Shown here in pieces: positions 4,744 through 32,086 of a stretch of 64,000 nucleotides of DNA; the first letter of the stretch is position 1; every line of letters begins with the position of its first letter. The translations under genes and the position numbers were made by a program. The stretch is from Rickettsiales bacterium (GTDB lineage Bacteria; Pseudomonadota; Alphaproteobacteria; Rs-D84): the NCBI GenBank assembly GCA_031256175.1, contig JAIRRC010000012.1, positions 914 through 64,913 of the forward strand, given 5' to 3'. Under the pieces are notes generated by a model that saw nothing but the letters and a program-made list of their open reading frames with translations, was not told where the DNA came from and did not search any database.

Positions 4744-5832
4744 ATGTCGTCGCAGCGCGATTTTTACGAAATTTTGGGCGTCCAAAAGGGCGCGGGTGAA
4801 AGCGATATAAAAAAGGCCTATCACAAGCTTGTCATGAAATACCATCCGGATAAAAATCCCGGCGACAAGGACGCGGAAGCCAAATTCAAGGAAATCAGCA
4901 ATGCTTATGACATCCTGCGCGACCCGCAGAAAAAGGCGGCTTACGACCAGTTCGGGCATTCCGCGTTCCAGGGCGGACAAGGGTTCGGCGGCGGCGCGGG
5001 CGGCAATCCTTTCGGCGGTTTCGATTTCGGCGGCGCGGGATTTTCAGGCGGCTTCGGCGATATGTTCGAGGACATATTCAACCAGATGGGATTCGGCGGC
5101 CGCCGCGCGCAGCCGAGGCAGGCCGACAATTCCGGCCGCGACCTTCTGCATGAAGTAAGGATAACTTTGGCCGAAGCCTTCGCCGGAAAGAATGTCGAAG
5201 TGAAATTCCAAACGAACGCGGCGTGCGAAAAATGCGGCGGCAAAGGCGGCGAGAATGTGAAGACTTGTCCGACTTGCGGCGGCAGCGGAAGCGTCCGCAG
5301 GTCGAACGGATTTTTCGCGGCGGAAACCGCGTGCCACGACTGCGGCGGCTTCGGAAAAAAGCCCGATAAAAAGTGCTCCGCTTGCGGCGGCACGGGCGCG
5401 AAGCGCGCGGCCAAAACCATCGAAGTCAAAATCCCCGCGGGCGTCGAAACCGGCGCGCGTCTGCGGCTTTCCGGGCAAGGCGAGGCGGGCGCGTTCGGCG
5501 CGCCGAGCGGCGATTTATACGTCGATATAATCGTTTTGAAGGACCCGCATTTCTCTCGCGACGGGTCGGATTTGTTAATCAATTTATCGGTGCCTTTCGC
5601 GACTTTGGCGCTGGGCGGAAGCGTCGATGTTTCGGGCGTCGACGGCAAGAATATCGAAGTCAAAATTCCTGCCGGAACCCAGGTCGGAACCAAGCTTCGC
5701 GTGAAGGGAAACGGCATGCCCGAACTTGGCCGCGCGTCGTCCCGCGGCGACCTTTACATAAACGTCATGACCCAAATCCCGACCCGTCTTTCGTCGAAAC
5801 AGAAAAAGCTTCTTGAAGAGTTCGCATCCTAA
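4744..5832 (+). CDS. dnaJ: Chaperone DnaJ
   Basis: J-domain with HPD (YHPDKNP), G/F-rich linker, four CxxCxGxG zinc-finger repeats, and a C-terminal substrate-binding domain. Confidence 0.95.
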   Translation: MSSQRDFYEILGVQKGAGESDIKKAYHKLVMKYHPDKNPGDKDAEAKFKEISNAYDILRDPQKKAAYDQFGHSAFQGGQGFGGGAGGNPFGGFDFGGAGFSGGFGDMFEDIFNQMGFGGRRAQPRQADNSGRDLLHEVRITLAEAFAGKNVEVKFQTNAACEKCGGKGGENVKTCPTCGGSGSVRRSNGFFAAETACHDCGGFGKKPDKKCSACGGTGAKRAAKTIEVKIPAGVETGARLRLSGQGEAGAFGAPSGDLYVDIIVLKDPHFSRDGSDLLINLSVPFATLALGGSVDVSGVDGKNIEVKIPAGTQVGTKLRVKGNGMPELGRASSRGDLYINVMTQIPTRLSSKQKKLLEEFAS

Positions 5833-5833
5833 A

Positions 5834-5870
5834 AACAACTCGACGGCGATTGCGGGGGAGTTGTTTTATT
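5834..5870 (+). terminator. Terminator after dnaJ; degenerate copy of the GGGGGAGTT hairpin family
   Basis: aacaactc...gcgggggagttgtt stem followed by TTTTATT. Confidence 0.55.
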
Positions 5871-5940
5871 AATTGAAATATATTCCTACTTGTGATAAAA
5901 TGTCTTAGTCAACAGGACAAATTCAAAAAAGGACTAGAAA

Positions 5941-6330
5941 ATGAATAAGAAAATATTCCTTGCCGTCGGCCTGACGCTGGCAAGCGCCGCCGCTTTCGCC
6001 GCCCCGCTTAAATTTTTCAAGGGTCTTTCTTGGACCAAATCCGCGGCTTCCCCGTTCGTCTTCGCGGAAAACACCAATCCGGCCGCGCGCGACCAGATGG
6101 TCAAATTCGACAAAATTCTTTCCCAATGCGGCGTGAAATTGGTTTATGCCCGCGCGAACGACGGCATGAAGATAGAGCTGGACGGCATAGGTTCCTTCAA
6201 ATACGACGACAATTTCGCGAATGGAAAAGTCGCGCTTGTGGCGTCGGCCAGGACGCCTTCGCTCTGCCCGAACGGCATCGGCCTGGCCATCGGGGACGAG
6301 GACGCCAACGTCCGCTGGACCGCCCAGTAA
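5941..6330 (+). CDS. Small secreted protein of unknown function (Sec signal peptide)
   Basis: N-terminal MNKKIFLAVGLTLASAAAFAAP signal peptide with an AFA-AP cleavage site. No prepilin G/xxxxE motif, so it is not the pilin of the downstream cluster. A terminator follows at 6335-6361. Confidence 0.5.
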   Translation: MNKKIFLAVGLTLASAAAFAAPLKFFKGLSWTKSAASPFVFAENTNPAARDQMVKFDKILSQCGVKLVYARANDGMKIELDGIGSFKYDDNFANGKVALVASARTPSLCPNGIGLAIGDEDANVRWTAQ

Positions 6331-6377
6331 AAATAAATCCCCCGAAAGGGGGATTTTTCATATGAATTTTATTTTTT

Positions 6378-6422
6378 CGGGGTCCCCATAAAACCGCCCC
6401 GGCACGGGTTGGTTTTATGGGG
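6378..6422. repeat. 45-nt palindromic element CCCCATAAAACC-GCCCCGGCACGGG-TTGGTTTTATGGGG (copy 1 of 2)
   Basis: Perfect 12-bp outer inverted repeat. A second copy at 45811-45856 carries compensatory substitutions. This copy lies ~75 nt upstream of the first pilus-cluster gene. Confidence 0.7.
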
Positions 6423-6495
6423 AAATTCCCTTGCTAGCCGGCGGGCTATTTGTTATAATTTAGGGAAGTATTAGGGGAAGAAAAGGAAATCGATT

Positions 6496-7344
6496 ATGAT
6501 TCAAAGAATTATGCTCGGCATTTTGGCCGTTTTCACGCTTTTTCCGGCGCACGCCGCGTTCGACCAGAGCGACCCTTCGGGCCTTGTCTGGCAAAGCCCC
6601 GACTGGGGTCCGGATACCGGCTGGGGCCCCGAGCCTTCGCTGGACAAGGTGAACAACATGTATCGGTCGGAAAGGCCGGTTATAAAATCGCGTCCATTCG
6701 GCGTCAATAATTCCACTTACCGCGAGCCGGGGCTTAAAGTGAACCACGCCATAACGGGCGAGGGATGGGGCGGCCAATACAGCTTCTCGGGTGGGGCGGA
6801 CCTTATGCACGGCAACAATGCGCCCGCCGGATTCAATGATAATTCCAAAGCGAAAATGCCGCTTCTGACCCAGGAAATGATAGAGGACGACGGCGGCGCC
6901 GCGCTTGTCATGTCCGTAAGCGACAGGAAATACAACGACAAAAAAGACGCGGGCGACGGCGTCATGATTGACGGCGGCGACACCGGCGGCGGGCTTTTCG
7001 CCAGCGCGGCCGACCTGTCGGGCAAAGCCGCCGACAAGGCCCAGATTGCGCCGGTCGGCGCGGGCGCCGACGTGGTCCGCAGCTGGGTCGTCGTAAGCGG
7101 CAAGACGCTGAGGCAAGTTTTGGAGGAATGGGCCCAGGCCGCCGGATGGGAGCTTGTATGGAACACTTCGCGCGAATATCCCGTCGCGGCCAGCGCCGTT
7201 TTCGAAGGCAGGTTCATGGACGTGTCCAGCGCCCTGGTCAGGAATTTCAGCCGCGCGAATCCGGTTCCGTATGCCAGGTTCTACAAGGGGAACAAGGTGC
7301 TGGTCGTAAGCACCTTGGATGAAGGGGAGAATAATGGCCATTAG
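6496..7344 (+). CDS. Periplasmic pilus-assembly protein with a C-terminal TcpQ/STN-like domain (putative secretin partner or pilotin-like protein)
   Basis: Sec signal peptide. The C-terminal ~80 aa (KTLRQVLEEWAQAAGWELVWNTSREYPVAASAVFEGRFMDVSSALVRNFSRANPVPYARFYKGNKVLVV) matches the STN/TcpQ-type fold pattern. First gene of the pilus operon. Confidence 0.45.
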   Translation: MIQRIMLGILAVFTLFPAHAAFDQSDPSGLVWQSPDWGPDTGWGPEPSLDKVNNMYRSERPVIKSRPFGVNNSTYREPGLKVNHAITGEGWGGQYSFSGGADLMHGNNAPAGFNDNSKAKMPLLTQEMIEDDGGAALVMSVSDRKYNDKKDAGDGVMIDGGDTGGGLFASAADLSGKAADKAQIAPVGAGADVVRSWVVVSGKTLRQVLEEWAQAAGWELVWNTSREYPVAASAVFEGRFMDVSSALVRNFSRANPVPYARFYKGNKVLVVSTLDEGENNGH

Positions 7345-8887
7345 AAAATACGTGCTTATGGCATGTATTTTTTCGGCGGCGGCGCTTGGCGCCGCCTGCA
7401 ATAAAACGCAGTCCGCGAAAGTCGCGGCCGCGGTCGACGACGATTTCGTGAACGCCAGCATAGCGCTGGACAGCACGCGCCAGCCGCAAAGCCGCGTGAC
7501 TTCCGACACCATTTCGGCGTCTGATGGCGTATGGCTGGGCTCGCGCTCGACCGCGGTGCGGCGCGGTTTCGATTTGCCCGCGCGCTTCGAGACCGGAAAC
7601 GGAATCACCATCATCATGGACGAGCCCGCGACGCTTCAACAGCTTTCGAACAGCATATACGAGATAACCGGAATAAACGTATCGATAGACGGGCAGGTTT
7701 CTTCGGAAAAATTGGGCAAGACGATTTCGCTTAGCCATAGCGGAAAATTAAGCGACATGCTGACCCGCGTCGCGACCGATTTGGATTTGCTTTGGCAATA
7801 CGACAGGGAAGACATAGTTTTCTACGAGACCGAAACCAAGACTTACAATCTTTACGCTCTCGGCACCGACATCAGTTTTTCTTCGCGCATATCGACCGAC
7901 GATTCGAATCAGGTTTCGCTTGAATCCAACCTCCGCGAATGGGACGAGATAGAGCGCAGCATAACGGGAATCCTGGACGGCGTGCCGAATGCTAAATTTT
8001 CCGTGTCGCGTTCCTTGGGCACGATTACCCTTACCGCGGGCCCAAGCGTCCAGAAGCGCGTGGCTGGTTATATCTCACGCCAGAACCGCCGCCTGTCCCA
8101 GCAGATTTCGATAGACGTCAAGGTCTTGCAGGTTTCGATTACGAACACCAACGCGGTCGGCCTGAATCTTACCGCCGCGATTTCGAGCGTCGCCGGATTG
8201 CAAATAGCGTCCAACGCTTCGAACAATATCACGGGCGCGTCCGGCCTTAACGTCGCGGTCGCCGAAGGCGCCAGCGGCGCGCTTGCGCCTGCGGCGGGGT
8301 CGAGCGCGCTTATCCAGGCACTGGCGCGCCAGGGCAAGGTGTCGCTTATGACCAACGCTTCGGTCACGACGCGCAACAACCGCGTGGCGCCAGTCAGCAA
8401 CGTCCGCAACACCGGATACATCAAGCGCATAGAATCCCGCACCTTCACCGCGGTCGAAAGTTCGAGCGTCGAGCAGGACACGCTTGAAACCGGATTTTCC
8501 ATGCAGCTGCTTCCGAACATCTTGGACGGCGGCCGCGTTCTTCTGCTTTTCAAGATGTCGCTTCGCGAGCTTATCCGCATGAACACCGAAACCATCGGCG
8601 GCGACAATGGAATCACCATCCAGATGCCCGACGTCGAAGAGCGGTCCTTCATGCAGGAAGTGATTTTGGAAACGGGGCAGATGCTTGTTATCTCGGGCTT
8701 CGAGCGCCAGGCGAACGACGACACGCGCTACGGCGTGGGCGAGGCGGACTTCATGGCGCTTGGCGGCTCGCGCGAGTCGACGTCCCAGCGCGACGTGCTG
8801 GTCGTGATTCTGACGCCGCAGGTGCATGTTTCCCCGATGGATTCCGAAAGGGCGATTATGCGCGAGGTCGGGGCGCCGCTTAATTAA
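7334..8887 (+). CDS. Outer-membrane secretin lipoprotein of the type IVb / R64 PilN / TcpC / BfpB class
   Basis: Lipobox LGAAC after the signal peptide (start taken at MAIRKY; an alternative start lies 15 nt upstream at 7319). C-terminal secretin domain (LMTNASVTTRNNRVAPVSNV...GFSMQLLPNILDGGRVLL). About 520 aa. Confidence 0.75.
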   Translation: MAIRKYVLMACIFSAAALGAACNKTQSAKVAAAVDDDFVNASIALDSTRQPQSRVTSDTISASDGVWLGSRSTAVRRGFDLPARFETGNGITIIMDEPATLQQLSNSIYEITGINVSIDGQVSSEKLGKTISLSHSGKLSDMLTRVATDLDLLWQYDREDIVFYETETKTYNLYALGTDISFSSRISTDDSNQVSLESNLREWDEIERSITGILDGVPNAKFSVSRSLGTITLTAGPSVQKRVAGYISRQNRRLSQQISIDVKVLQVSITNTNAVGLNLTAAISSVAGLQIASNASNNITGASGLNVAVAEGASGALAPAAGSSALIQALARQGKVSLMTNASVTTRNNRVAPVSNVRNTGYIKRIESRTFTAVESSSVEQDTLETGFSMQLLPNILDGGRVLLLFKMSLRELIRMNTETIGGDNGITIQMPDVEERSFMQEVILETGQMLVISGFERQANDDTRYGVGEADFMALGGSRESTSQRDVLVVILTPQVHVSPMDSERAIMREVGAPLN

Positions 8888-8909
8888 ATTCGCAGCAGGG
8901 GGAAATCTT

Positions 8910-10178
8910 TTGACGGCACAGATAGTTTCCGTTTCAAGAAAAAAATACGCGGTCGGGCTTTTCTGGCAGCCCGTCGCCGCCGCGCACGCCGCCAAGGGCG
9001 TCGCCGAAAGAATCTCGAAGTCCGCGCCCCAGGCGAGATTCAGATACTATGCGCAATACAGGAACCTTGTCGGCCTTGGCAGTCCCGCGCTTAAACATTA
9101 TTCGGGCCTGTCCGCGCTTGCGCCCGAAGTCATGGAATCCTTCGGCGACGCGCCTTCCTTCGCCGCGGTTTTCAAGGTCGGCGGCGGATACTGGATGATT
9201 GCCGTCAGGAACGGAATAATCCTGTCCGACCAGGACAGGTTGTTCGCGGTCGAAAAGGACGCGCGCGAGGCATTCGACAAACTATTGCAGCTTCCCGACT
9301 GGTCGCTTAAAGTCGCGCCGGAATCCTGGGGGATAACGGGCGCCCAGGAACGGAATATCGACGACGTCATATCGGGCAAAGTCCGAAGCGCGCTGCGTCC
9401 GATTGGCGAAACTTCCGGCCTTATGTTGAAGCTGCTTGTTTTCGGCGCCGCCGCGATAGCGCTTGTGTATTTTTTCGAGGCGGACATAAACAGGTTCCTT
9501 TCGCCCGGGCCCGCCGCGTCCCAAATGACCGAGGAATCCGCCCGCTTGTATAAAGAGCAATTGGCGCTTATGAAATCCGACCTGGCCGCGCCTGAAACTA
9601 TTGCGCCGGCGGGTCCCGTCATGCCGTGGGAAACTATTCCGCCGGCGAACGAAGTCGCCGCCCTTTGCACCAAGGCCATCGCCTTCATAATGCAGCCGGT
9701 CTATGGCTGGAACGTCGTTTCCGCCGACTGCGCCAATGGAAAAATCCACGCGGTAATCCGCCGCGACTACGGCACCATCCAGGAATTATACGAAGCGGTC
9801 GGCGGCCTTATGCCCGGCGTGGAAATCAAGACTTCGGGCGCGGGCGGAAGCGATGCGGAATTGTCGGGAACCTGGCCGCTGGCCGCCGCCGTCGCGAATG
9901 CCCCGGCTGAAAACATCGCCGCTGTCGAGCGCCGCGTCCGCAGCGTCTTTCAAATGGCGAACATGCCGGCCGCCATTTCCGTCGGCAAGGAAATCGTCGC
10001 GTCCCAAGGCGGCGATGTCAAAAGGACCGCGGAATATGTCCTTGTCCGCGCCGATTCCAAAATCATGCCGGAAGAATTCATGAAATTCCTTGAAATCCCG
10101 GCCGTCGAATTGCTGTCGGTTTCATGGGACATGGGAAAAAGCCAATGGAGCTATGAGGTGAGGGTGTATGCTTTGTAA
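8910..10178 (+). CDS. Pilus biogenesis protein, R64 PilO-like by position and size (single TM segment)
   Basis: Plausible TTG start at 8910 with RBS cagggggaa, directly after the secretin stop; the ORF track gives an ATG at 8826 that overlaps the secretin. One hydrophobic segment LMLKLLVFGAAAIALVYFF. Size and position match R64 PilO / ICE pilO. Confidence 0.4.
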   Translation: MTAQIVSVSRKKYAVGLFWQPVAAAHAAKGVAERISKSAPQARFRYYAQYRNLVGLGSPALKHYSGLSALAPEVMESFGDAPSFAAVFKVGGGYWMIAVRNGIILSDQDRLFAVEKDAREAFDKLLQLPDWSLKVAPESWGITGAQERNIDDVISGKVRSALRPIGETSGLMLKLLVFGAAAIALVYFFEADINRFLSPGPAASQMTEESARLYKEQLALMKSDLAAPETIAPAGPVMPWETIPPANEVAALCTKAIAFIMQPVYGWNVVSADCANGKIHAVIRRDYGTIQELYEAVGGLMPGVEIKTSGAGGSDAELSGTWPLAAAVANAPAENIAAVERRVRSVFQMANMPAAISVGKEIVASQGGDVKRTAEYVLVRADSKIMPEEFMKFLEIPAVELLSVSWDMGKSQWSYEVRVYAL

Positions 10179-10797
10179 GAAATATTTGATTGCCGCGCTG
10201 CTGTCCGCGCTTGCCGCGCCGGTCTTCGCGGACGATATAAACCTGGACGAATTCGACGCCGAAGGTTCGGTCTTCCTTCGCATAACCGCGCTGGAACAGG
10301 ACAAGGTCCTGATGAGGCTTGAAAAGGAGCGCGCGCAGCTTGCGCTCGACCTAAGCCGCATAGAGGCCGAAAAGTCGCGCCTTGCCGGAAGCGAAAGCGC
10401 GCCCGCGGGCGACGCCTCGGCCGAGCTTGCCGCCCAGTTCGACGAAGAGCGCAGGAAGATGAACGAGGAATTGGAGCGTTTCCGCCGCCAGCTCGACGAA
10501 GTCAAAACCGCGCCGCGCGAACCTGCCGATGCGCCCGCCCGCGCCGCCGATGTCGCCGCGGCTTCGGACGACGGCGAATTCGACATAGCCGACCATTACC
10601 GCCTTGTTCACATAACCGGGACCGAAGGCAATCTTAAAGCCATGGTCGAAATCGTCGCGAACGGCCACAGGCAGCGCGTCGGCGAAGGCCACGCATTCGA
10701 CGGATTCGTCGTGCAGGGAATTTCAAGCGGCGATGGCGTTCGGCTGGAGCGGGACGGCGAAGTCTTCCAGCTTCGCATGGTGAACGCCGCGAGATAA
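10168..10797 (+). CDS. Pilus biogenesis protein, PilP-like (signal peptide, coiled coil, C-terminal beta domain)
   Basis: Signal peptide MLCKKYLIAALLSALAAPVFA, a coiled-coil stretch, and a C-terminal HR-like beta domain YRLVHITGTEGNLKAMVEIVANGHRQRVGEGHAFDGFVVQGI. The start overlaps the previous gene by 11 nt. Confidence 0.4.
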   Translation: MLCKKYLIAALLSALAAPVFADDINLDEFDAEGSVFLRITALEQDKVLMRLEKERAQLALDLSRIEAEKSRLAGSESAPAGDASAELAAQFDEERRKMNEELERFRRQLDEVKTAPREPADAPARAADVAAASDDGEFDIADHYRLVHITGTEGNLKAMVEIVANGHRQRVGEGHAFDGFVVQGISSGDGVRLERDGEVFQLRMVNAAR

Positions 10798-10824
10798 AAT
10801 AACGCCATAAGTGGGAGAGAGCGA

Positions 10825-12450
10825 GTGGCAATATCGGCTAAGAACATCATAAGGGATATGAAGGAATCCGTGCCTGCGCGCATGGCGGATTCCGATTCGA
10901 AAAAAATCGTGGAATATCTTTTTTCCGAAGGCAACCAATTGCTGACGGGATTCCGCGGGCGGCTCGAACTGCCCAAAGACACCCAGAATTTGATAGCTTA
11001 TTTTTCCGGCGGCGAATTGATAATTTCGCGCACGCACAGATACGACGGCCGCGTGCTTGCCTTCGTTTCATTGGCCCAGCGCGAAAATCTTCCCCTTAAA
11101 GAGCCGTTTTACAGCGACATGGGCCTGCTGTCCGCCATATACAAGCAGGGCGAGGGCGCTTCGGGCGCCGCCGCGAAATCCCGCCTTGACTACGACAACC
11201 AGATGCAAAAGGACTTCGTCGACATAGTCGCCAAGGCCGCTAGCGCGAAAGTGTCCGACATACATATCGAAGTCGCGAACCATACGACCATATATTTCCG
11301 GAAAGACGGCGGAATGCAGACCATGCTTGAATACAGCGCCGCCTGGGGCGAAAGCTTCATCCGCGCGGCCTTCGCAAGCGCCGACATATCGAGCAGCAAC
11401 TATGCCAAGAACGAATACCAAAGCGCGCAAAAAGACGGCAGGACCCCGCTTCGCGGAACCAAGGATTTATATCTTCCCGCCGGGGTCCTCGGCATCCGCA
11501 TGCAGTTCAATCCAATCGCTTTCGGCTCGCGCTATGTGGTCATGCGCCTTCTTTACGAGAACCCGAGCGAAGGCATTCGGATAGAGCAGGAATTCACCGA
11601 TTTCGAGCAGCGCCTGTTGGCGCGCCTGCGTTCCTTCCCGACCGGCCTTGTGATAGTCGCGGGCCCGACGTCCAGCGGTAAATCGACCACGCTTTTCCAG
11701 AACATGACCATGATGCTGGGCGAGCGCGACTATGAAATAAACTTGATAACCGTCGAAGACCCGGCGGAAAGAAAAATCTTCGGCAGTCGCCAGATGCCGG
11801 TCGTGAACGCCACGACCGAGGAAGCCCGCGACGAAAAATTCACCGAAGCCTTGGCCGCCGCTTTGCGAAGCGACCCGGACGTCCTGATGGTCGGCGAAAT
11901 CCGCACGCTTAGCGCGGCCGAGCTTACCTTGAAGGGCGCGCTTTCGGGACATTCCGTCTGGACGACGCTTCATGCGAATTCCGCGATAGGCGCGCTTAAC
12001 CGCCTTATCGACATGGGCGTCGAGGCCTTCAAACTTAAAGACGAAACCATGATGCGCGGCCTTATGTCCATGCGCCTGTTCAAGCAGCTTTGCCCGCACT
12101 GCAAGGAACCATTGGCGCGTCATCCCGAGCTTGCCGTTCATGCGCGCGCCCTGGATTATTTCGGCGAAACCGGACTTGCGCAGATTTTCATCCGCGGCCA
12201 TGGGTGCGAGCAATGCGGCGGCAAGGGCACCATCGGCCGCGTCAAAGCGGGCGAAATCGTTCTGTGCGACGGAAAAATTTTAGAGCTTGTCGCCAAGGGA
12301 AGCAAACTGGAAGCCCAGGATTATTGGCTGAACGCTTTGGGCGGGCGCACGCTTAAAGAAGCCGCCGGCGAGCTTATGCTTAAAGGCCGCGTCGGCGCGG
12401 ACGAGCTTGAACGCTGGGTCGGCCTTATAGACCAGCCGGGGATTTACTGA
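10825..12450 (+). CDS. Type II/IV secretion-system ATPase (GspE/PilB/TcpT/R64 PilQ family)
   Basis: GTG start with RBS gggagagag. Walker A GPTSSGKST, Asp box, Walker B DPDVLMVGEIR, His box GHSVWTTLHANSA, and the tetracysteine motif CPHC...CEQC. Confidence 0.9.
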   Translation: MAISAKNIIRDMKESVPARMADSDSKKIVEYLFSEGNQLLTGFRGRLELPKDTQNLIAYFSGGELIISRTHRYDGRVLAFVSLAQRENLPLKEPFYSDMGLLSAIYKQGEGASGAAAKSRLDYDNQMQKDFVDIVAKAASAKVSDIHIEVANHTTIYFRKDGGMQTMLEYSAAWGESFIRAAFASADISSSNYAKNEYQSAQKDGRTPLRGTKDLYLPAGVLGIRMQFNPIAFGSRYVVMRLLYENPSEGIRIEQEFTDFEQRLLARLRSFPTGLVIVAGPTSSGKSTTLFQNMTMMLGERDYEINLITVEDPAERKIFGSRQMPVVNATTEEARDEKFTEALAAALRSDPDVLMVGEIRTLSAAELTLKGALSGHSVWTTLHANSAIGALNRLIDMGVEAFKLKDETMMRGLMSMRLFKQLCPHCKEPLARHPELAVHARALDYFGETGLAQIFIRGHGCEQCGGKGTIGRVKAGEIVLCDGKILELVAKGSKLEAQDYWLNALGGRTLKEAAGELMLKGRVGADELERWVGLIDQPGIY

Positions 12451-13523
12451 TGGCGACCAAGCTCGATATAATTTATTCGAAAATCATGTTCCGGTTCGAT
12501 ACGGCGAAGCGCCTTAACGCGTATCGGAAATTGTCGTCGCTGCTTCGGAACGATTTCACCTTGATTGAATCGTTGGACCGGCTTGTCGCGATAGAAAGCC
12601 GCGAGGGGAAAAAACCCAGCGAGCCCTTCGCCGTCGCTTACGCCGACTGGCAGGCCAAGCTGGAACGCGGATACACTTTTTCCGAAGCCATATCCGGCTG
12701 GGCGCCCGAGATAGAAGTCCTTATGCTTTCGGCGTCCGACATTTCGAAGCTTTGGGTCGCGCTTGAAAACGCCGTCAGGGTGGTCGAGGGCGGAAATAAA
12801 ATCAGCGGCGCGTTGGTGTCGGCGCTTTCCTATCCTTTGTTTTTGCTGGCCGCGACATTCGCGATAGTCGTCATGGTCGGGACGTATTTACTGCCGCCCA
12901 TGCTGGAAGCCGCGGGCAGGGACGTCATATGGCGCGGCGCCGCGCGCACCCTTGTAAGCGTGTCGGAATTCTTCGGCGCGAACTGGATTGTCATGGCGGG
13001 CGGGCTTGTCGGCGCCGCGGCATTGATTGCGTTTTCCATGCCGGTTATGCGCGGTCGCCTGCGGACCATGCTGGACAATATTCCGCCCTGGTCGCTTTAT
13101 AAGATTTCCGCAAGCGCCGGCTGGCTGGTGAGTCTTGCGTCGCTTATCAAGGCGGGCGCGACATTGCCCGAAGCGCTTAAAATGATGTCGCAGAATTCGA
13201 ACGGCTATCTGGCCGATGTGTCGGACAAGGCGCTTAACAATGTTATCGCCGGGCACAATCTCGGCGACGCTTTGGACGCCGCAGGTTTGCATTTCCCGAA
13301 CGATGAAATCATAGGCGATTTGAAAATCTATGCGGACATGGACGAATTCGACAAGAACCTTATGAATGTCGCGACTGAATACATGGATAATTCCGTCAAA
13401 AGCATAGAAACGACGGCGAACCTTTTGAATTCGATAGGCGTGCTTCTGATTTCGGTCGTCATAGCGTGGGTCGTCTTCGGCACCTTCGAAATGCAGGACC
13501 AAGTCGCCGCCGCTATCAGCTGA
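12450..13523 (+). CDS. Inner-membrane platform protein (GspF/PilC/TcpE/R64 PilR family)
   Basis: 357 aa with three hydrophobic segments in the GspF-like arrangement. The start overlaps the ATPase stop (TGATG). Confidence 0.7.
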   Translation: MATKLDIIYSKIMFRFDTAKRLNAYRKLSSLLRNDFTLIESLDRLVAIESREGKKPSEPFAVAYADWQAKLERGYTFSEAISGWAPEIEVLMLSASDISKLWVALENAVRVVEGGNKISGALVSALSYPLFLLAATFAIVVMVGTYLLPPMLEAAGRDVIWRGAARTLVSVSEFFGANWIVMAGGLVGAAALIAFSMPVMRGRLRTMLDNIPPWSLYKISASAGWLVSLASLIKAGATLPEALKMMSQNSNGYLADVSDKALNNVIAGHNLGDALDAAGLHFPNDEIIGDLKIYADMDEFDKNLMNVATEYMDNSVKSIETTANLLNSIGVLLISVVIAWVVFGTFEMQDQVAAAIS

Positions 13524-15998
13524 TTATTTCGCCCTTATATAATCCGGGTCGATGGCGCGAAGCGCTTCCGCCTCGTCGAACTTGGCGCCTTTTGGCGTCG
13601 CTATGACGCTTAGCGGACGTGATTCGGAAGACGAATTCCTGAACAGAATCTGCATGGACGCGCCCGTGCCTTCCGCCATGACGGCGGCGTCCCCGGAGAT
13701 TGTCGCGCTGTCCGTTTTAAGGACGAAGGGCGCGCTTGATATGATTTCGCTTCCGCTTATGCGCACCGGAATCGAAAGGGTCTTGATTTCCATCGACGCT
13801 TTGGGCGAAAACGCCCTTTCCAAAAATTCGCCTATATTCGCGCGGGTCAGGCCCTTGCCGAATATCTGGCGCGTGTCTATGCCGACGATTTTTCCGCCGG
13901 TTATGCTTATGTCCGCGCTGCCCTCCATATTTTCCGATATGTCGTTCGCGACCAGGCCGAATGTCGTAAGCAGCGCTTCGCCGGTTATGCTCGCGTCCAT
14001 GATGTCAAGGCCGAGTCTGCCGATAAGCGCGCCCGGAACGGCAAAGCCGCTTGCCTTGGCCGAAATTTCGAATTCGCTTCCGCCGCGCCGCGTTATTTCG
14101 GCGAAGCCCGTGCCGCCGCCCGTGCTTTCCACTGAAATTTTCTGCACGTTTCCGGCCTTGGAGAATACAAGGTTCTTGTATTCCTGTCCGTCGAATATCA
14201 CGACCTTGTCGGCGACCAATGAAAAATCGGGGGCGATTTTGAACAGGCCCATAAGCGGCGCCTGGTGCAGAAACTGCATTTGCTCGTAATTCATAATCCA
14301 ATGGTTCGAAAGCAGGGTGTCGATGTTAAGCTCCGCCGTTTTGAACGCGAAGCTTGTGTCCGCGCCGCGGCCGTAAATCGTCTGCGCGAAAACGCCCTTT
14401 GTCGTAAGCCGCAGGTTCTCGAAGTTTCCAAGCCTGTATTCGCCGGAAAAATCGAATCCTATGCCGCTTTTCATGAAGGCGGTGTCGAAGCCCGGGAACA
14501 TAAGCTGCAATGTTTCCGCCAGGTCGGCGCCCGACAAGACGAATCGGATTTCGCCGCCGGATTCATAGAGCGCGACGCCCATGTTTTCGCTTTTGACGAA
14601 AAGCGTCTGGTCTTTTCCGTCCGTTTCCGCGGTTATCTCGCCCTTGAATTTGGCGCGAAGCGCGGCTGGGATTTTTTCGATTGCGCTCATCTTGAACGGG
14701 ATTTCGGCCAAGGTCCCGGATATATTCCTGTATTTGTGCGAAGCGCCCGCGCGGCTGGCCTTATAGAATCCGATTGTGTCCGAAAGGATTATATGGATGT
14801 CGCCCGCGGCTTCCTTCTTGATTTTTTTTATGACGGCGGCGGTGTCCTGGCCTTCGGTCTTTTCCAGCCAAACCATAAGGCCGCCTTCCCCCATCCCTGC
14901 GCTGCCGGATATGCGCAGGTTTTCCGTATTGATGGAAAGCCCGTTGCAGCCCCAGTCGTCCGCCGATTTCCAGGACAGCGAATTGCACCTGATGGAAACC
15001 GGTTCCGCTATGCCGATTATATCGCTTCCGTCTTTCTTGTATAGGGATACTTCGATGTCCTTCGGCAGTCCGTCCTTCAATTTTCCGCGCGCGCGGAGCG
15101 AAAAATCCTCGCCCTGGATTTCGGCCTTTTGGATTTCGTCCCCGTTCGCGCGGATTTCGAATTTCCTGATTGTCCGCTCGCCGAATTTGAATTTTCCCTC
15201 GCCCGAGATATTGACCGAAGCGGCGGCCGGCGCGCTTTCAAGTATGCCCAAATCGCCCTCTATCATCGTAAGGTCGAGCGTCGATGTTTTTCCGAATGTC
15301 GCATTGCCCTTCATGATGGTGTCGGTGGACGACAGCGTCATGTCGGTAAGTTTCAGGGAATTTTCGGACAGGACGAAATTCGCGTCTATGCCGAGTGGCC
15401 GCGCCGCGGCCGCGCCGAAGCTGTATCCGAAGCCCTGCAAAAATTCTTCAAGATTCGGAAAGCTGCCGCGGAAATGCCCCGCCGCCGTTGTCTTGCCGCC
15501 CGAAAATTTATAGTCGAATTCGGTTTCGAGCGACAGGGCGGAGTTTTCTATCTTGGCGCGCCCGTCCTTTATATCGGCCGTGAACCGCCTGTCGTTATGG
15601 ACGAAGGAACCGGTGAACCGCCGCCCGTCCAAAGTCAGGCGCCCGTTTATGTTTTTGAAGTCGCCGAAGATGGCGCCGCGCACCGACACCGCGCCTGGCA
15701 CCGATATATTGGCCGGATTCAAAAAGTCCGTTATCCTTATCGGGAACTGGACGCTTTCGGCCCGGATGTCCCCGGCCGACACAAGGTGCGCGCGCAAGAT
15801 GGGCCGCGGCAATAATGTTATCCGGACCGCGCCGTCTATCTTCGCGTCCCTTCCTGATTGCTCGGATATGGCGGCGGCGAGACCCGGTTTAAGATACGAA
15901 AAGTCCATAAATGCCGGGAAGATTAGGATACTAATCCCAACGGCGGCGATGATTAGGGTCGAAAACCAGATTATCCGGGCGCGGGTTTTGCGTTTCAT
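13524..15998 (-). CDS. AsmA-family protein (N-terminal TM anchor, large periplasmic domain)
   Basis: Trimmed to the internal start MKRKTRARIIWFSTLIIAAVGISILIF, a TM anchor preceded by an RBS-like sequence. Length and composition are typical of AsmA/TamB-like proteins. The first 88 codons of the tracked ORF read as non-coding. Confidence 0.65.
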   Translation of the reverse strand: MKRKTRARIIWFSTLIIAAVGISILIFPAFMDFSYLKPGLAAAISEQSGRDAKIDGAVRITLLPRPILRAHLVSAGDIRAESVQFPIRITDFLNPANISVPGAVSVRGAIFGDFKNINGRLTLDGRRFTGSFVHNDRRFTADIKDGRAKIENSALSLETEFDYKFSGGKTTAAGHFRGSFPNLEEFLQGFGYSFGAAAARPLGIDANFVLSENSLKLTDMTLSSTDTIMKGNATFGKTSTLDLTMIEGDLGILESAPAAASVNISGEGKFKFGERTIRKFEIRANGDEIQKAEIQGEDFSLRARGKLKDGLPKDIEVSLYKKDGSDIIGIAEPVSIRCNSLSWKSADDWGCNGLSINTENLRISGSAGMGEGGLMVWLEKTEGQDTAAVIKKIKKEAAGDIHIILSDTIGFYKASRAGASHKYRNISGTLAEIPFKMSAIEKIPAALRAKFKGEITAETDGKDQTLFVKSENMGVALYESGGEIRFVLSGADLAETLQLMFPGFDTAFMKSGIGFDFSGEYRLGNFENLRLTTKGVFAQTIYGRGADTSFAFKTAELNIDTLLSNHWIMNYEQMQFLHQAPLMGLFKIAPDFSLVADKVVIFDGQEYKNLVFSKAGNVQKISVESTGGGTGFAEITRRGGSEFEISAKASGFAVPGALIGRLGLDIMDASITGEALLTTFGLVANDISENMEGSADISITGGKIVGIDTRQIFGKGLTRANIGEFLERAFSPKASMEIKTLSIPVRISGSEIISSAPFVLKTDSATISGDAAVMAEGTGASMQILFRNSSSESRPLSVIATPKGAKFDEAEALRAIDPDYIRAK

Positions 15999-16047
15999 AT
16001 TCCTCTCTCTTGATTTATAAGTATAACACATTAGTATATAGGGAACA

Positions 16048-18030
16048 ATGTTTGAATTGAAATCCGCATTTTCACCGACGGGCGACCAGCCCGCAGCAAT
16101 CAAGGAATTGACAGACGGCCTGATAGCGGGCAAACGCGACCAGACGCTTCTTGGGGTTACGGGTTCGGGCAAGACCTTCACCATGGCGAATATAATCGCG
16201 AACCTTGACCGGCCGGCGCTTGTCATGGCGCCGAATAAAATCCTGGCCGCCCAGCTGTTCACCGAAATGAAATCGTTCTTTCCGAAGAACCATGTCGAAT
16301 ACTTCGTGTCCTATTACGATTACTACCAGCCCGAGGCATACGTCCCGACGACCGACACTTATATAGACAAGGACGCCGCGATAAATTCGGATTTGGAGCG
16401 CATGAGGCATTCCGCGACCCGCTCGCTTTTGGAATACCGCGATACGATTGTGGTTTCGTCGGTTTCGTCGATTTACGGCCTTGGCGACCCGGCCGAGTAT
16501 AAATCGATGTGCCGGACTTTTTCGGTCGGGCAGAAAATCGAAATGATGAAAATGCTGATGGAGCTTGTGGCGCTTCAATACAAAAGGAACGACATAGGCT
16601 TTTCCCGCGGCGACTTCATGGTTTCCGGCGACGCGGTCCAGATTTTTCCGCCCCATTCCGAAGACCGCTGCGTCCGCGTTTCATTCTTCGGCGACGAGAT
16701 AGAGGCCATCTATGAAATCGACGGCCTTACCGGAAAAACCATCGCCCAGGTCGGCCATATTTCCGTTTATCCGAACAGCCATTATGCGACGGAAAATTCC
16801 ATAATAACGAACGCTATAAAAAGCATCCGCGTCGAATTGGCCGACCGCCTTGCCTGGCTTGCGGAGAACAAAAAATTGCTGGAAGAACAGCGCCTTAAAG
16901 AGCGCACCAATTTCGATTTGGAAATGATGTCGGCGACGGGAACCTGCAAGGGGATAGAGAATTATTCGCGCTATCTTTCCGGCCGCGCGCCCGGCGAAGC
17001 GCCGCCTACGCTTTTCGAATATCTTCCCAAAGATTCGCTTCTGTTCATCGACGAATCGCACGTGTCGGTTCCGCAAATCGGCGCGATGTATAAGGGCGAC
17101 CGGTCGCGGAAGCAAACGCTTGTGGATTACGGCTTCCGTTTGCCCAGCGCGCTTGACAACCGCCCCATGAAGTTCGAGGAATGGGACGCCATAAGGCCGC
17201 AGACCATTTATGTATCCGCGACGCCGAACGATTATGAAATCGGATTGTCGAAAGGCGTCGTCGCCGAACAGGTAATCCGCCCGACCGGACTTCTCGACCC
17301 GGTGTGCGAAATAAGGCCGACCGCGTCCCAGGTGGACGACCTGCTTGGCGAATGCAAAAAAGTCGCGGCGAACGGGGGCAGGGTGCTGATTACCACCCTT
17401 ACCAAAAAGATGGCGGAACAGCTTACGGAATACCTTGCGGAAAACGGAATCCGCGCGCGCTATCTTCATTCGGACGTCGAAACATTGGAGCGCATAGAAT
17501 TGATTCGGCAGTTGCGCGCGGGCGATTACGACGTCTTGGTCGGAATCAATCTATTGCGCGAAGGGCTGGACATTCCCGAATGCGAGCTTGTCGCGATTAT
17601 GGACGCGGACAAGGAAGGGTTCTTGCGTTCGGCGCGCTCGCTGATTCAGACGATAGGCCGCGCGGCGCGGAACGCGGACGGCCGCGTGATTCTTTATGCC
17701 GATACCGAAACGCGAAGCATGAAGGATGCATTGGCGGAAACTTCGCGCCGGCGCGAAAAGCAGATGGCTTATAATAAGGCGAACAATATAACGCCGAAAA
17801 CCATAACCAAAACCATCTTCGATAAAATCGGCGAAGATTTGAAAGACCGCAAAAAGACCCGGTATATCTATACGCAAAAAGGCGCGCTTACGGCGGACGA
17901 CGTGAAGAAGGAAATCGCGGCGCTTGCGAAACAGATGAAGAAATTGGCCGAAGATTTGGAGTTCGAGCGCGCCGGACTAGTCCGCGACCGATTGAATTCT
18001 CTTAAAGAGGATTTATTGTATTTGGAATAA
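16048..18030 (+). CDS. uvrB: Excinuclease ABC subunit B
   Basis: 660 aa. Helicase Walker [10 protein letters not shown], the beta-hairpin region, and a C-terminal UVR coiled-coil domain. Confidence 0.95.
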
Positions 18031-18036
18031 TCCATT

Positions 18037-18062
18037 GTCATTCCGACCTTCGTCGGAATGAC
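18037..18062. repeat. Palindromic element GTCATTCCGAC-CTTC-GTCGGAATGAC (family copy)
   Basis: Perfect 11-bp inverted repeat. A 23-nt identical core recurs at 33459-33481, and related copies lie at 41613-41636 and 45123-45146. Confidence 0.75.
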
Positions 18063-18162
18063 TAGGGTGGTTTGTTAGGCGCAAGCGGCCGGGAATGGCG
18101 GACGAATTCATACCTATCGAAAAAAATTTCCTTGCATATATAATGCGGGCAGAGGTGATGCC

Positions 18163-18426
18163 ATGAGGAAGATTTTTTTTATATCGATTATATTTTCAAG
18201 TTTTATAGTCTTGGGGGCTCGCGCCGAAGATTCTGACTGCGGCGAGGGGATGTATTCGTTCGAAAATATGTGCATAGACCGGAAGCATGCTTACGCATTG
18301 GCCGGGACGGAATGCGCGATAGACGCGGAAGACGCCGACATGGGCGAGGCGCGCCTCGGCGTATACGCGGTGAATGAAAACTCGGTCGAATGCGTGGAAT
18401 TATGGCAGGGCCAGCTGCCGGAATAA
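18163..18426 (+). CDS. Small secreted cysteine-containing protein, unknown function
   Basis: Signal peptide MRKIFFISIIFSSFIVLGARA and four Cys residues. 87 aa. Confidence 0.4.
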   Translation: MRKIFFISIIFSSFIVLGARAEDSDCGEGMYSFENMCIDRKHAYALAGTECAIDAEDADMGEARLGVYAVNENSVECVELWQGQLPE

Positions 18427-18429
18427 AAA

Positions 18430-19056
18430 CTATTTCGGATTGTAGCCGAAGATGTCGCGCTCGCCCCAGTCCAGGTCGAGAAGCACGCGCGTCTTCAAAA
18501 ATTCGAAGCAGCTTTGGGCCAGCGCGGCGCGGTTCTTGTCCCGCAGTCCGTCTTCCAGAACTTTCTTCAAATCGTGCAGGTGAAGCACGTCTTCCGCCGC
18601 ATAGGCCTGCTGCTGTTCGTTCAAATCCAGGCTCCAATCCGACATGCATTCCTTCTTGTCCAACTCGATTTTGAAAATCTCGCGCAGGGAATTCGCAAGG
18701 GTGTGCCCGCCCTTTGGCCGCGCGAGCAGGACGCCGATTTTCGTGCAGAAAACCGGTGTGGCCCAGACGCCCAGGTATTTGTAAATCATCAGCAAATCCA
18801 TCCGCGCATAATGGAAAATCTTCGCCGAATTCGGGTTCGACAGAACCTTCGCAAGGTTCGGATACCGCAATTCGTCCCGCATCTGGACCAGATAAACATC
18901 CGGGCCGGCGCCCTTAATCTGCACAAGCCAAAGCCGGTCGGTCTTCACGTTCAGGCCGCTTAGCTCGGTATCGACCGCGAGTTCGGGCTCGGCCATAAGC
19001 GCGGCGGTTTCGGCTTCGTTCAGGTCGCGCCGAAGATAATTTATTCTAGGCGGCAT
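18430..19056 (-). CDS. 3'-5' exonuclease, short RNase D-like (DEDDy family)
   Basis: Exo motif pattern (DTE...; Y..D region HYARMDLL). About 200 aa, as in the short alphaproteobacterial RNase D homologues. Confidence 0.6.
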   Translation of the reverse strand: MPPRINYLRRDLNEAETAALMAEPELAVDTELSGLNVKTDRLWLVQIKGAGPDVYLVQMRDELRYPNLAKVLSNPNSAKIFHYARMDLLMIYKYLGVWATPVFCTKIGVLLARPKGGHTLANSLREIFKIELDKKECMSDWSLDLNEQQQAYAAEDVLHLHDLKKVLEDGLRDKNRAALAQSCFEFLKTRVLLDLDWGERDIFGYNPK

Positions 19057-19483
19057 CCTTCATCCTTTTCAAAAATTCGTCCAGCACCACAAGCGCCGCG
19101 ACGCTGTCCGACTTGCCCTTTTGCTGTTTCGTATTAAGGCCCGCCTCGTGAAGCAAATCTTCCGCCGCCTTGCTGCTTAAATGCTCGTCGTAAAGCAGAA
19201 TCGGCGTGTCGGTCCGGGCGGCGAGCGACGCTGCGAAAGCCCGAATCTCGTCCGCGGTTTTGCCCGCCGGCGGCAGGCCGACCAGGATTCCGACAACGTT
19301 GTCTTCCGCGGCCGTCCGCGCGATTTGCGCCGCGTCCGGCGAAACTTGCGGACGCGGGAACGTCCATTCGCGGGCGGCGTCCGATATGGCGATTCCTGTG
19401 CGCGCGGCGCCCCAATCGACCGCCATGATTTTCCCGCTTGGCGGCAGTTTTCCTATAAAATCCTTGAAATCCGAATATATCAA
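19046..19483 (-). CDS. ruvX: Putative Holliday-junction resolvase / pre-16S rRNA nuclease YqgF/RuvX
   Basis: RNase H-like motif MAVDWGAARTGIAISD; about 145 aa. Confidence 0.75.
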   Translation of the reverse strand: MIYSDFKDFIGKLPPSGKIMAVDWGAARTGIAISDAAREWTFPRPQVSPDAAQIARTAAEDNVVGILVGLPPAGKTADEIRAFAASLAARTDTPILLYDEHLSSKAAEDLLHEAGLNTKQQKGKSDSVAALVVLDEFLKRMKDAA

Positions 19484-22697: not shown

Positions 22698-23959
22698 AGT
22701 TTTTCATGCGAACCTTCGGCTGCCAGATGAACGTCTATGACGGCCAGAGAATCGCAAGCCTTCTCGAAAAATCAGGATACGCCGAAACATCCGAAATCCC
22801 GGAAGCCGACGTCATAATAATAAACACCTGCGCGGTGCGCGAAAAGGCGTCGGAAAAAATATTCTCGCTTTTGGGAAAAATTTCGAAAACGAAAAAGGCG
22901 GGCGCGCTGCTCGGCATAGTCGGCTGCGTCGCGCGGGCCGAGGGCGCAAACGCGTTCCGCCGCATAAAGGGCCTGAACTTCGCGCTCGGGCCGCAGTCGT
23001 ATCACAAGCTGCCCGAAGTATTGCGCGAATCGAAATATATGGACGTAGATTTGTCCGGCCTGGAAAAATTCGACGCGCTGCCGACGAACACGCGCAGCAC
23101 CGCAATCGCATACGTGCCCGTTCAGGAAGGCTGTTCGCATTGCTGCACCTATTGCATAGTGCCCTTCACGCGCGGGCCGGAAGTGTCGCGCGATATGGAT
23201 TCGGTCATGTTCGAGGCCCTCGCCGCCGCGGCGCGCGGCGCGGTCGAAATATGCTTCCTTGGCCAGAACGTGAACGGATACAAGCCGGGCTTGGCCGAAC
23301 TTATCCGCCGCGCGGCGAAGATAGAGGGGGTCCGGCGCATAAGATACACTTCGTCCTATCCGACCGAAATGACGGACGATTTAATCGCGCTTCACGGGAC
23401 GGAAGAAAAATTACTGCCCTTCGTGAATATGCCGCTTCAATCTGGTTCGCTCGAAATTCTGAAACGCATGAACCGGCCTTATGACATCGAACAATACCTC
23501 GGCGTTATGGAAAAGTTCAAAGCCGCGCGGCCGGACATAAAAATTTCAAGCGACTTCATAGTGGGATTTCCGGGCGAAACCGAAAAAGATTTCGAAATGA
23601 CGATGGAAATAGTGCGCCGGTGCGGCTTCATAAATTCCTATCCTTTCAAATATTCCCCGCGCCCGCGCACCGCCGCGGCCCTTATGGACGGCCAGGTCGC
23701 CGAAGACGTGAAATCGCGGCGCCTTGAAGAGCTGGACAATCTTCTTAATGAAAACAACCGGGAATTCAACGAAAGTCTGGTCGGGCGCACTTTGACGTGT
23801 CTGGTCGGCGAGGCGGGAAAAAAATCCGGCCAGGTTATAGCGCGCACGCCTTGGACGCAGCAGGTTGTCCTTGACGGCGCCGGCGCGCTCATGGGAAAAT
23901 TGGTCGACATCAAAATAACTTCCGGAAACAAAAGCAGTCTGCGGGGCGAAATCAAATGA
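22694..23959 (+). CDS. miaB: Radical-SAM methylthiotransferase of the MiaB/RimO family (MTTase, radical SAM and TRAM domains)
   Basis: N-terminal MTTase domain (FGCQMN), radical SAM motif CSHCCTYC, and a C-terminal TRAM region. Its position ahead of ybeY-lnt matches the conserved miaB neighbourhood. Confidence 0.65.
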   Translation: MKFFMRTFGCQMNVYDGQRIASLLEKSGYAETSEIPEADVIIINTCAVREKASEKIFSLLGKISKTKKAGALLGIVGCVARAEGANAFRRIKGLNFALGPQSYHKLPEVLRESKYMDVDLSGLEKFDALPTNTRSTAIAYVPVQEGCSHCCTYCIVPFTRGPEVSRDMDSVMFEALAAAARGAVEICFLGQNVNGYKPGLAELIRRAAKIEGVRRIRYTSSYPTEMTDDLIALHGTEEKLLPFVNMPLQSGSLEILKRMNRPYDIEQYLGVMEKFKAARPDIKISSDFIVGFPGETEKDFEMTMEIVRRCGFINSYPFKYSPRPRTAAALMDGQVAEDVKSRRLEELDNLLNENNREFNESLVGRTLTCLVGEAGKKSGQVIARTPWTQQVVLDGAGALMGKLVDIKITSGNKSSLRGEIK

Positions 23960-32051: not shown

Positions 32052-32086
32052 AAAACTCCCCCCTTGCGGGAGAGTTGTTTTATTAC
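32052..32086. terminator. Bidirectional terminator hairpin of the AACTCCCCCC..GGGAGAGTT family
   Basis: A-run, aaactcccccc-ttgc-gggagagttg, T-run. It lies between convergent genes. Confidence 0.7.

Follow-up and report, generated by a model that had tools for sequence, protein, structure and literature searches.

A probable type IVb pilus assembly operon among the chromosomal core genes of a reduced-genome gut alphaproteobacterial lineage

The window analyzed here, a 64-kb stretch of DNA from a Rickettsiales bacterium of the Rs-D84 lineage, carries six genes at 6496-13523 that probably form a vertically inherited operon for the core of an envelope-spanning type IVb (T4b) pilus machine, the pilus serving mainly for attachment or aggregation. 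The T4b assignment is based on the homology of the parts, the gene order, the conservation, and the genomic context. Seven open reading frames (ORFs) occupy 5941-13523 on the + strand, and six of them (6496-13523) make up the compact co-directional unit that the first-pass annotation of this DNA had described. From 6496-7344 through 12450-13523, the junctions between successive ORFs measure -11, +19, -11, +27, and -1 nt. The six genes, with product lengths in amino acids (aa) and the evidence that names them, are as follows.

6496-7344, + strand: TcpQ/BfpG-like periplasmic secretin partner, 282 aa (PF10671 TcpQ, 3.6e-20, residues 195-272)
7334-8887, + strand: outer-membrane lipoprotein secretin of the PilN/BfpB type, 517 aa (PF00263 Secretin, 1.2e-12; TIGR02520)
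8907-10178, + strand: PilO2/BfpC-like bitopic inner-membrane assembly protein, 423 aa (PF06864 PAP_PilO)
10168-10797, + strand: protein in the PilP/BfpU position, 209 aa (gene position, size, signal peptide; TIGR03021 pilP_fam sub-threshold)
10825-12450, + strand: pilus extension ATPase of the BfpD/PilQ class, 541 aa (PF00437 T2SSE, 1.2e-61)
12450-13523, + strand: inner-membrane platform protein of the GspF/PilC/BfpE family, 357 aa (PF00482 T2SSF)

The 282-aa protein has a signal peptide, a Gly/Asp-rich linker, and a C-terminal TcpQ domain (PF10671, 72.2 bits vs a cutoff of 27), which matches BfpG (chain 9u5s_R, 7e-14) in a search of PDB sequences. Its gene lies directly 5' of the secretin gene and overlaps the secretin start by 11 nt. 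The secretin carries a lipobox (LGAAC, Cys22) that 116 of 120 homologues retain. Among NCBIfam models, the secretin scores best with the type IVB PilN model TIGR02520 (9.3e-74, 248.8 bits), as compared with 104 bits for MshL and 25 bits for the GspD model TIGR02517 (cutoff 351), and its sole match in PDB is the lipoprotein secretin BfpB (9u5s, 7e-46). The PilO2-like protein exceeds the cutoff of PF06864 PAP_PilO (32.5 vs 26.7 bits) and shares 28% identity (1e-24) with a Bosea "type 4b pilus protein PilO2"; it has no significant match in the PDB sequence search. An alternative start of this ORF is possible back to 8826, the start at 8907 being the gene call from the Logan contig. The 209-aa protein has a signal peptide, a coiled coil, and a C-terminal beta domain. 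It occupies the slot held by pilP in R64, by bfpU in the bundle-forming pilus (BFP) operon, and by a hypothetical gene in the Bosea cluster, and its gene is kept in that slot in all 80 related loci; neither PDB nor BLAST searches match it to BfpU or PilP. The ATPase displays a Walker A motif (GPTSSGKST), a Walker B motif (DPDVLMVGEIR), a His box, and a CxxC...CxxC zinc motif (CPHC...CEQC), in which the tetracysteine motif noted at first pass is readable. The platform protein matches PF00482 in two stretches (9.9e-21, 74.4 bits).

Sequence comparison identifies the six genes as a T4b pilus assembly cluster, not a type IVa (T4a), Tad, or type II secretion system (T2SS) cluster, and as a core set the six look complete. 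The best PDB relative of the ATPase is BfpD (8dze; 4e-78, 266.6 bits, residues 35-524), compared with 163.7 bits for GspE and 120-143 bits for PilF/PilB; together with the exclusive PDB match of the secretin to BfpB, this upholds the T4b-class assembly first proposed for the cluster. In pairwise comparisons with the Bosea plasmid cluster, BFP, and R64 (NC_005014), the ATPase scores 320, 268, and 173 bits, respectively (38% identity with the Bosea plasmid protein, 33% with BfpD, and 29% with R64 PilQ), and the platform protein 219, 172, and 92 bits (34% with Bosea, 31% with BfpE, and 26% with PilR). Likewise, the TcpQ-like protein scores 74 bits with Bosea, 63 with BFP, and 31 with R64 PilL, its identity over ~80 aa being 47% with the Bosea plasmid TcpQ protein and 37% with BfpG. 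Only the secretin scores comparably across the compared systems, R64 included (149-165 bits). Since the ATPase, platform, and TcpQ proteins score higher with BFP and Bosea than with R64, the T4b assignment is correct, whereas the label "R64/ICE-type" (ICE, integrative and conjugative element) given at first pass is too narrow. The gene order is shared with bfpG-B-C-U-D-E, with R64 pilL-(M)-N-O-P-Q-R, and with clusters on Bosea and Escherichia coli plasmids, which carry the annotation "type 4b pilus protein PilO2." A lipoprotein secretin is the feature that separates T4b systems from T4a and T4c systems, and BfpG is bound to BfpB at 17:17 in structure 9u5s (PMC12531336). Because such a secretin marks T4b systems, a lipidated secretin with a TcpQ-like partner is to be expected here; the pair is the T4b norm (PMC12531336) and not the uncommon combination it had first been taken for.

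Membership in the other machine classes was considered and rejected. For a T2SS, GspD reaches 25 bits (cutoff 351) and GspE 216.8 bits (cutoff 630), and no GspC, GspL, GspM, or minor pseudopilins were found. For a Tad/Flp (T4c) system, the TadA-family model TIGR03819 gives 36 bits against a cutoff of 373; moreover, there is a single GspF-type platform gene, the secretin is of the PilN/BfpB type, and the pilin described below is a 158-aa globular protein, not Flp. The GenBank label "TadA" on the ATPase is thus a misannotation. In the PDB searches, the best matches of the ATPase and the secretin are neither Tad/CpaF-RcpA nor T2SS GspD/E; in the hidden Markov model (HMM) searches, the secretin scores best with PilN, and the ATPase with GspE, far below the cutoff. 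An R64/ICE conjugative thin pilus was set aside because no type IV secretion system (T4SS), relaxase, integrase, or PilV is linked to the cluster and its parts are not closest to R64.

The fiber subunit appears to be encoded elsewhere in the window, at the following gene.

56776-57252, + strand: major-pilin candidate, 158 aa (class III signal motif scan; family profile, fold, and hhalign)

This gene divergently adjoins uvrC, 43 kb from the assembly genes. Its product begins MYKNESG↓RSMIEMMGVLAV..., with cleavage predicted before RSMIEM (arrow) and Glu at +5, and has a long N-terminal helix and two C-terminal Cys; N_methyl (PF07963) gives 16.5 bits, which is below cutoff. The family is conserved at ~50% identity across the lineage and lies beside uvrC in every case. 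Its profile matches the T4b pilin TcpA (8uhf, 6.8e-7), and Pfam PilS is matched by 8 of 14 members. An AlphaFold2 model (pLDDT 80) shows a long N-terminal helix and an alpha-beta head, and its top fold matches are TcpA and Salmonella Typhi PilS, with weak scores. In addition, hhalign aligns the family at 98.3% probability with the in-cluster pilin of a locus outside the lineage (L096), which lies directly after the platform gene, has a leader of ~24 residues, and has in common with the lineage pilin the start G↓R-T/S-M-I-E-M (G↓RTMIEM in L096). By profile, Pfam, predicted fold, and hhalign, 56776-57252 therefore seems to encode a T4b-type major pilin unlinked to the cluster, and because it is identified as T4b-type and lies beside uvrC, the pilin gene is separated from the assembly genes in this lineage. 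The earlier statement that the cluster lacks its pilin holds for the adjacent genes; the pilin itself is present in the window and conserved in the lineage.

A 184-aa secreted protein is encoded at 57257-57811, starting 5 nt after the pilin stop codon, and in the closest relative the same position after the pilin holds an unrelated sequence (L094, 10600-11076), so that 57257-57811 looks like a variable slot beside a conserved pilin gene. Tandem ~160-aa genes near the Enterousia pilin locus were considered as pilins and rejected, being paralogous lipoproteins. These arrays of two or three genes (L085, 18297-19881; L086, 18295-19803) lie downstream of fba in Enterousia-type genomes and are followed by a gene for a large Cys-rich secreted protein; they may encode variable surface proteins.

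The cluster is flanked by dnaN and dnaJ upstream and by a convergent AsmA-family gene, which abuts the stop codon of the platform gene, and uvrB downstream, in agreement with the housekeeping neighborhood first described. The window also contains plsY-dprA-dnaA, a gyrB-family gene, uvrC, gatCAB, ruvA, tolB, and fabD/G. The plsY-dprA-dnaA arrangement at 51193-54262 identifies this stretch as the chromosomal origin region. The cluster is chromosomal and is not part of a mobile element such as an ICE. The Pfam domains of substantial ORFs in the 64 kb include none of an integrase, a relaxase, or a T4SS, nor was any tRNA-site junction or GC shift found around the cluster; the first-pass observation that no integrase or relaxase is adjacent thus holds across the whole window. 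A Neisseria-type origin was ruled out, as there are no copies of the DNA uptake sequence (DUS).

A relative of the ATPase is encoded in at least 176 species-representative genomes. The relatives come from termite-gut and animal-gut metagenome-assembled genomes, including Candidatus Enterousia, and we retained 80 related loci for comparison, with ATPases 67-85% identical to that of the window. ATPase identity is at least 67% within the lineage, whereas outside it drops to 52% (L095), 43% (L096), and at most 39% (all others). Judged by these identity steps, the system of this lineage forms a distinct clade, which supports the earlier suggestion of a distinct T4b lineage. In most lineage members, the system is split over three loci: pilO-P-ATPase-platform after lipid A synthesis genes, tcpQ-secretin near plsY, dprA, dnaA, and gyrB, and the pilin beside uvrC. 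The six genes stand together in the window and in loci L002-L004 and L009, and partially in L070; in the clade of the window, the assembly genes have stayed as one group of six. One alphaproteobacterial pilO-P-Q-R locus, with an ATPase 71% identical to that of the window, lies in a 716,531-bp chromosome record (L014, OZ246409.1) labeled "uncultured Muribaculaceae bacterium"; this label seems mistaken, and the genome is of very small size.

To place this conservation, the pilus parts of the window were compared with those of Enterousia-type genomes alongside housekeeping proteins. Identities are 70% for the ATPase, 60% for the secretin, 51% for the pilin, 49% for the platform protein, 49% for TcpQ, 34% for PilO, and 32% for PilP, as against 64% for DnaN, 64% for GatA, 56% for DnaJ, 54% for UvrC, and 41% for DnaA. 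The GyrB family reaches up to 71%, with a median of 40% that is low because the matches include a paralogue. This comparable level implies vertical inheritance under strong constraint. Moreover, the cluster is present in genomes spanning 35-56% GC and is at local GC. These comparisons indicate that the cluster consists of vertically inherited core chromosomal genes and is not plasmid or ICE cargo. Outside the lineage, the L095 cluster has the same six-gene order and adjoins a TrbC/VirB2-type gene, and in L096, also with this order, PilS, PilM, and a shufflon-type PilV come next; both contexts fit a mobile-element T4b ancestor turned into a chromosomal core trait. Beyond its shufflon-type PilV gene, L096 has three radical SAM or SPASM-like genes (15855-19113).

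Enterousia has been placed in the GTDB order Rs-D84, the genomes of which are below 1 Mb, with no respiration and few transporters, and which is reported to be without nucleotide and amino-acid synthesis (PMC12306168). The same study proposed an obligate symbiont or parasite lifestyle, invoked unknown "intercellular connections," and mentions no pili for Rs-D84 (PMC12306168). Assigned to this order by protein similarity, the host belongs to a reduced-genome, probably partner-dependent gut lineage (PMC12306168) and is not a typical free-living bacterium, contrary to the free-living chromosome context assumed at first pass. A paper on cervid colonization factors holds nothing on Enterousia pili.

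In the mechanism we propose, the hexameric ATPase would power the platform protein, which would extract processed pilin from the inner membrane and polymerize it. The PilO2/BfpC-like and PilP/BfpU-like proteins would bridge the inner-membrane motor and the outer-membrane channel, and the self-targeting lipoprotein secretin, ringed by its TcpQ/BfpG-like partner, would pass the fiber through the outer membrane. The subunit of this fiber would be the TcpA/PilS-like pilin of 56776-57252. We infer that the pilus is actually made, which would require a prepilin peptidase, the gene for which presumably lies at another place in the genome. The main job of the pilus is most likely to attach to the surfaces of hosts or partner cells or to aggregate with them, in the way of BFP, the toxin-coregulated pilus (TCP), and colonization factor antigen III (CFA/III); adhesion and cell contact are the default reading by this analogy and suit the proposed partner-dependent lifestyle. 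DNA uptake may be a further role or may take the place of this one.

A broader proposal, which we advance only tentatively, is that Rs-D84/Enterousia interact with other cells mainly through the T4b pilus, a domesticated, formerly mobile-element system that is kept under housekeeping-level constraint, latches onto partner bacteria, protists, or host mucosa, and possibly imports DNA. The role of type IV pili in episymbiotic Saccharibacteria offers a parallel. Rs-D84/Enterousia are bacteria of ~0.7-1 Mb without standard nutrient transporters and without most biosynthesis, and if the proposal is true, the pilus would be the first concrete molecular handle on the lifestyle of these uncultured gut alphaproteobacteria.

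Several observations weigh against the T4b pilus reading. The secretin score of 248.8 bits is lower than the trusted cutoff of TIGR02520 (287.65), and the ATPase is below the NCBIfam trusted cutoff (best model GspE TIGR02533, 216.8 vs 630). The PilP-like name comes from gene position and a sub-threshold match (TIGR03021 pilP_fam, 1.3e-4, 22.9 bits vs a cutoff of 34.65) and is accordingly provisional; as for its first description as PilP-like and lipoprotein-like, the signal peptide and coiled coil are there, but the protein has no lipobox Cys and is not a lipoprotein. The pilin leader, in the window and in most of 46 homologues, is 6-7 residues long, a T4a-like length, and is thus shorter than the leader (~15-30 residues) of classical T4b pilins. 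In addition, the predicted +1 residue is Arg, which is nearly invariant across the family.

Expected parts are also missing from the sequence that was searched, namely the window and 1.65 Mb of lineage sequence around the three pilus loci in relatives. No A24 prepilin peptidase was found in either, whether by tblastn with the E. coli plasmid A24 peptidase (E <= 1e-3) or with an HMM built from BfpP, PilU, and the same plasmid peptidase and searched at E <= 10. A scan of the window for ORFs with multiple transmembrane segments returned only the platform protein, PlsY, and a YbeY-Lnt ORF (see below), so that for the window the lack of a prepilin peptidase reported at first pass is confirmed. Were the peptidase truly absent, pilin maturation would be impossible. 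Since the TXSScan T4bP model treats the prepilin peptidase as mandatory yet as a "loner" gene (PMC6668835), it would be nothing unusual for the peptidase gene to be unlinked. Neither a lytic transglycosylase nor a PilT/BfpF-type retraction ATPase was found in the window or the 1.65 Mb. Minor pilins were likewise not found: relaxed class III signal scans give one pilin only in the window, and tblastn gave no match to PilV or BfpI-K type genes in the window or related loci; a minor pilin may be encoded at another site.

Among the other explanations, a DNA-uptake (competence) pilus or pseudopilus, taking up extracellular DNA for transformation or as a nucleotide source, is unlikely but deserves attention, because dprA is retained and nucleotide auxotrophy is reported. 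In the window dprA lies at 51342-52814 (PF02481, 1.8e-60), and it is kept in Enterousia-type genomes below 1 Mb, at a distance of no more than 5-7 kb from the tcpQ-secretin pair (L088). The reported absence of nucleotide synthesis in Rs-D84 would fit the use of DNA as a nucleotide source (PMC12306168), and a pilin unusually conserved across the order (~50%) would fit a constrained, non-antigenic role. However, DprA is common in bacteria without known competence, no ComEC, ComEA, or ComF was seen in the window or loci, and searches of the window and the 1.65 Mb turned up no retraction ATPase. Furthermore, characterized DNA-uptake pili are T4a, Com, or Tad-like and are not known to include T4b pili, which also counts against this explanation.

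We consider it quite improbable that the genes encode a T2SS-like secretion machine, in which a short pseudopilus would drive exoproteins through the secretin in the manner of TCP/TcpF and CFA/III/CofJ. Protein secretion by T4b pili is known (PMC9565799), small secreted proteins adjoin both the operon (5941-6330) and the pilin (57257-57811), and databases name the pilin "type II secretion system protein" or "pseudopilin PulG"; yet these adjacent secreted proteins are not conserved past the closest relatives. The best NCBIfam model of the ATPase is GspE (216.8 bits), but this score is far under the 630-bit cutoff and that of BfpD is much higher, while GspD reaches 25 bits against 249 for PilN, and GspC, GspL, GspM, and GspH-K were not found. 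Still more improbable is a conjugation thin pilus, or the remnant of an R64/ICE-type element stripped of its pilin, peptidase, and transfer genes. Such an origin would agree with the R64 pilL-R gene order, with the TrbC/VirB2-type gene next to the nearest outside relative (L095, ATPase 52%), and with the PilS, PilM, and shufflon-type PilV of L096. Against it, all cluster ORFs are intact, the pilin is kept and conserved at a separate locus, conservation is at housekeeping level in at least 176 species, the parts score better to BFP than to R64, and the surroundings of the cluster show no T4SS, relaxase, integrase, tRNA-site junction, or GC shift. The remnant explanation is therefore largely refuted, and a T4b pilus used mainly for attachment or aggregation is the reading that we retain.

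Upstream of the operon, three further features were identified.

5941-6330, + strand: secreted 129-aa protein with a Sec-type signal peptide and without family match (ORF and domain searches)
6379-6427, no strand: palindrome of ~45 nt (inverted repeat, 19-nt arms, 89% complementary)
6431-6459, + strand: promoter-like site, TTGCTA, 17-nt spacer, TATAAT, with TG extension (consensus scan, 10/12 matches; consensus match only)

The 5941-6330 gene has its own promoter-like site (5873-5901) and a terminator-like hairpin (6338-6352) followed by a T-run, and among relatives just the two closest, L002 and L003, keep its product (60-71% identity). It is a neighboring gene, not part of the pilus system, and the cluster start first placed at 5941 belongs to this separate gene. 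The promoter-like site at 6431-6459 ends 37 nt upstream of the first operon gene, and the palindrome sits between it and the terminator of the 5941 gene. Its RNA fold has an energy of -33 kcal/mol (z = -4.4). A strict-pattern search found no second copy, whereas short-word BLAST recovered a diverged one at 45817-45856, in which pairing is kept via G-U pairs and two-sided changes. Both copies are intergenic, the second directly next to the start codon of a gene on the other strand that encodes a methylpurine DNA glycosylase. The palindrome is not in Rfam (the Rfam scan gave tRNAs only) and not in related loci; a repetitive extragenic palindromic (REP)-like element and a protein-binding site are candidate roles. 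The palindrome and its second copy, as first reported, are real, but its location in the 5' leader is not established because it lies upstream of the promoter-like site.

Elsewhere in the window, a hairpin after dnaJ (5831-5875) shares an 18-22 nt core (GGGGGAGTTGTTTT...) with intergenic sites at 1442-1459 and 32064-32085, and these three sites look like a recurring terminator-like sequence family. A single 596-aa ORF at 23956-25746 joins a YbeY endoribonuclease (residues 21-129) to LNT_N and CN_hydrolase domains (apolipoprotein N-acyltransferase); two genes may have fused, or the boundary between them may have been overlooked. Two AsmA/YhdP-family genes (13524-16262 and 37855-39921) occur in what is a small genome, and Enterousia-type genomes likewise have a gene of the AsmA family after the pilin locus (L084, 11477-13561).

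T4b pili are familiar chiefly from gammaproteobacterial pathogens, where they are accessories for virulence or conjugation encoded on plasmids or islands. Here, the same machine seems to belong to the ordinary core traits passed on vertically in a widespread gut lineage, the hosts of which include termites, ruminants, horses, chickens, and humans and the genomes of which are among the smallest of gut Proteobacteria. A pilus kept at 60-70% identity in a genome below 1 Mb would be a strong candidate for the proposed "intercellular connections" (PMC12306168) and a surface marker usable for enrichment or imaging. The assignment also corrects the database labels "TadA," "hypothetical protein," and "type II secretion system protein." Notable in this system are its genomic setting and some unusual features of its pilin.

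Comparing the system with known T4b pili, BFP of enteropathogenic E. coli (pMAR2) has the same core order, G-B-C-U-D-E, within the full operon bfpA-G-B-C-U-D-E-F-P-H-I-J-K-L. It supplies the best solved-structure relatives of the ATPase (BfpD), the secretin (BfpB), and the TcpQ-like protein (BfpG), and likewise has a lipoprotein secretin with an N0-like partner (PMC12531336). However, the window parts are only 26-37% identical to those of BFP, the TcpQ-like protein is twice the length of BfpG (282 vs 133 aa), and the pilin leader is short. BFP is plasmid-borne, and one operon holds the pilin, the retraction ATPase BfpF, the peptidase BfpP, the transglycosylase BfpH, and the minor pilins, whereas here the pilin is 43 kb away and counterparts of BfpF, BfpP, BfpH, and the minor pilins were not found in the window or the 1.65 Mb. 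The highest similarity outside the lineage is to the alphaproteobacterial plasmid cluster of Bosea sp. RAC05 pBSY19_1 (NZ_CP016463) and to the uncharacterized metagenomic clusters L095 and L096, with an identical six-gene order. These clusters carry a pilin, PilM, shufflon-type PilV, and/or a second ATPase beside the core, all of which the window cluster is without, and they lie on a plasmid or beside T4SS genes, unlike the window cluster among its origin-region housekeeping genes.

The R64/IncI1 thin pilus (pilI-pilV) and the ICE PilL-V systems have a PilN-type secretin, PilO2, PilP, PilQ, and PilR in the same order. The window shares with R64 a secretin that scores best on the PilN equivalog model and a pilin family that matches Pfam PilS, but it is without PilM, the PilT transglycosylase, the PilU peptidase, the PilV shufflon adhesin, the Rci recombinase, and a linked conjugation system. 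TCP of Vibrio cholerae, which to our knowledge has no dedicated retraction ATPase, shares the pair of TcpQ and TcpC (a lipoprotein secretin) and lies on a pathogenicity island with its own pilin, the peptidase TcpJ, the minor pilin TcpB, and the secreted TcpF. Its pilin TcpA, by profile (6.8e-7) and also by predicted fold, is the best solved relative of the window pilin, although TcpA differs in having a 25-residue leader and Met at +1.

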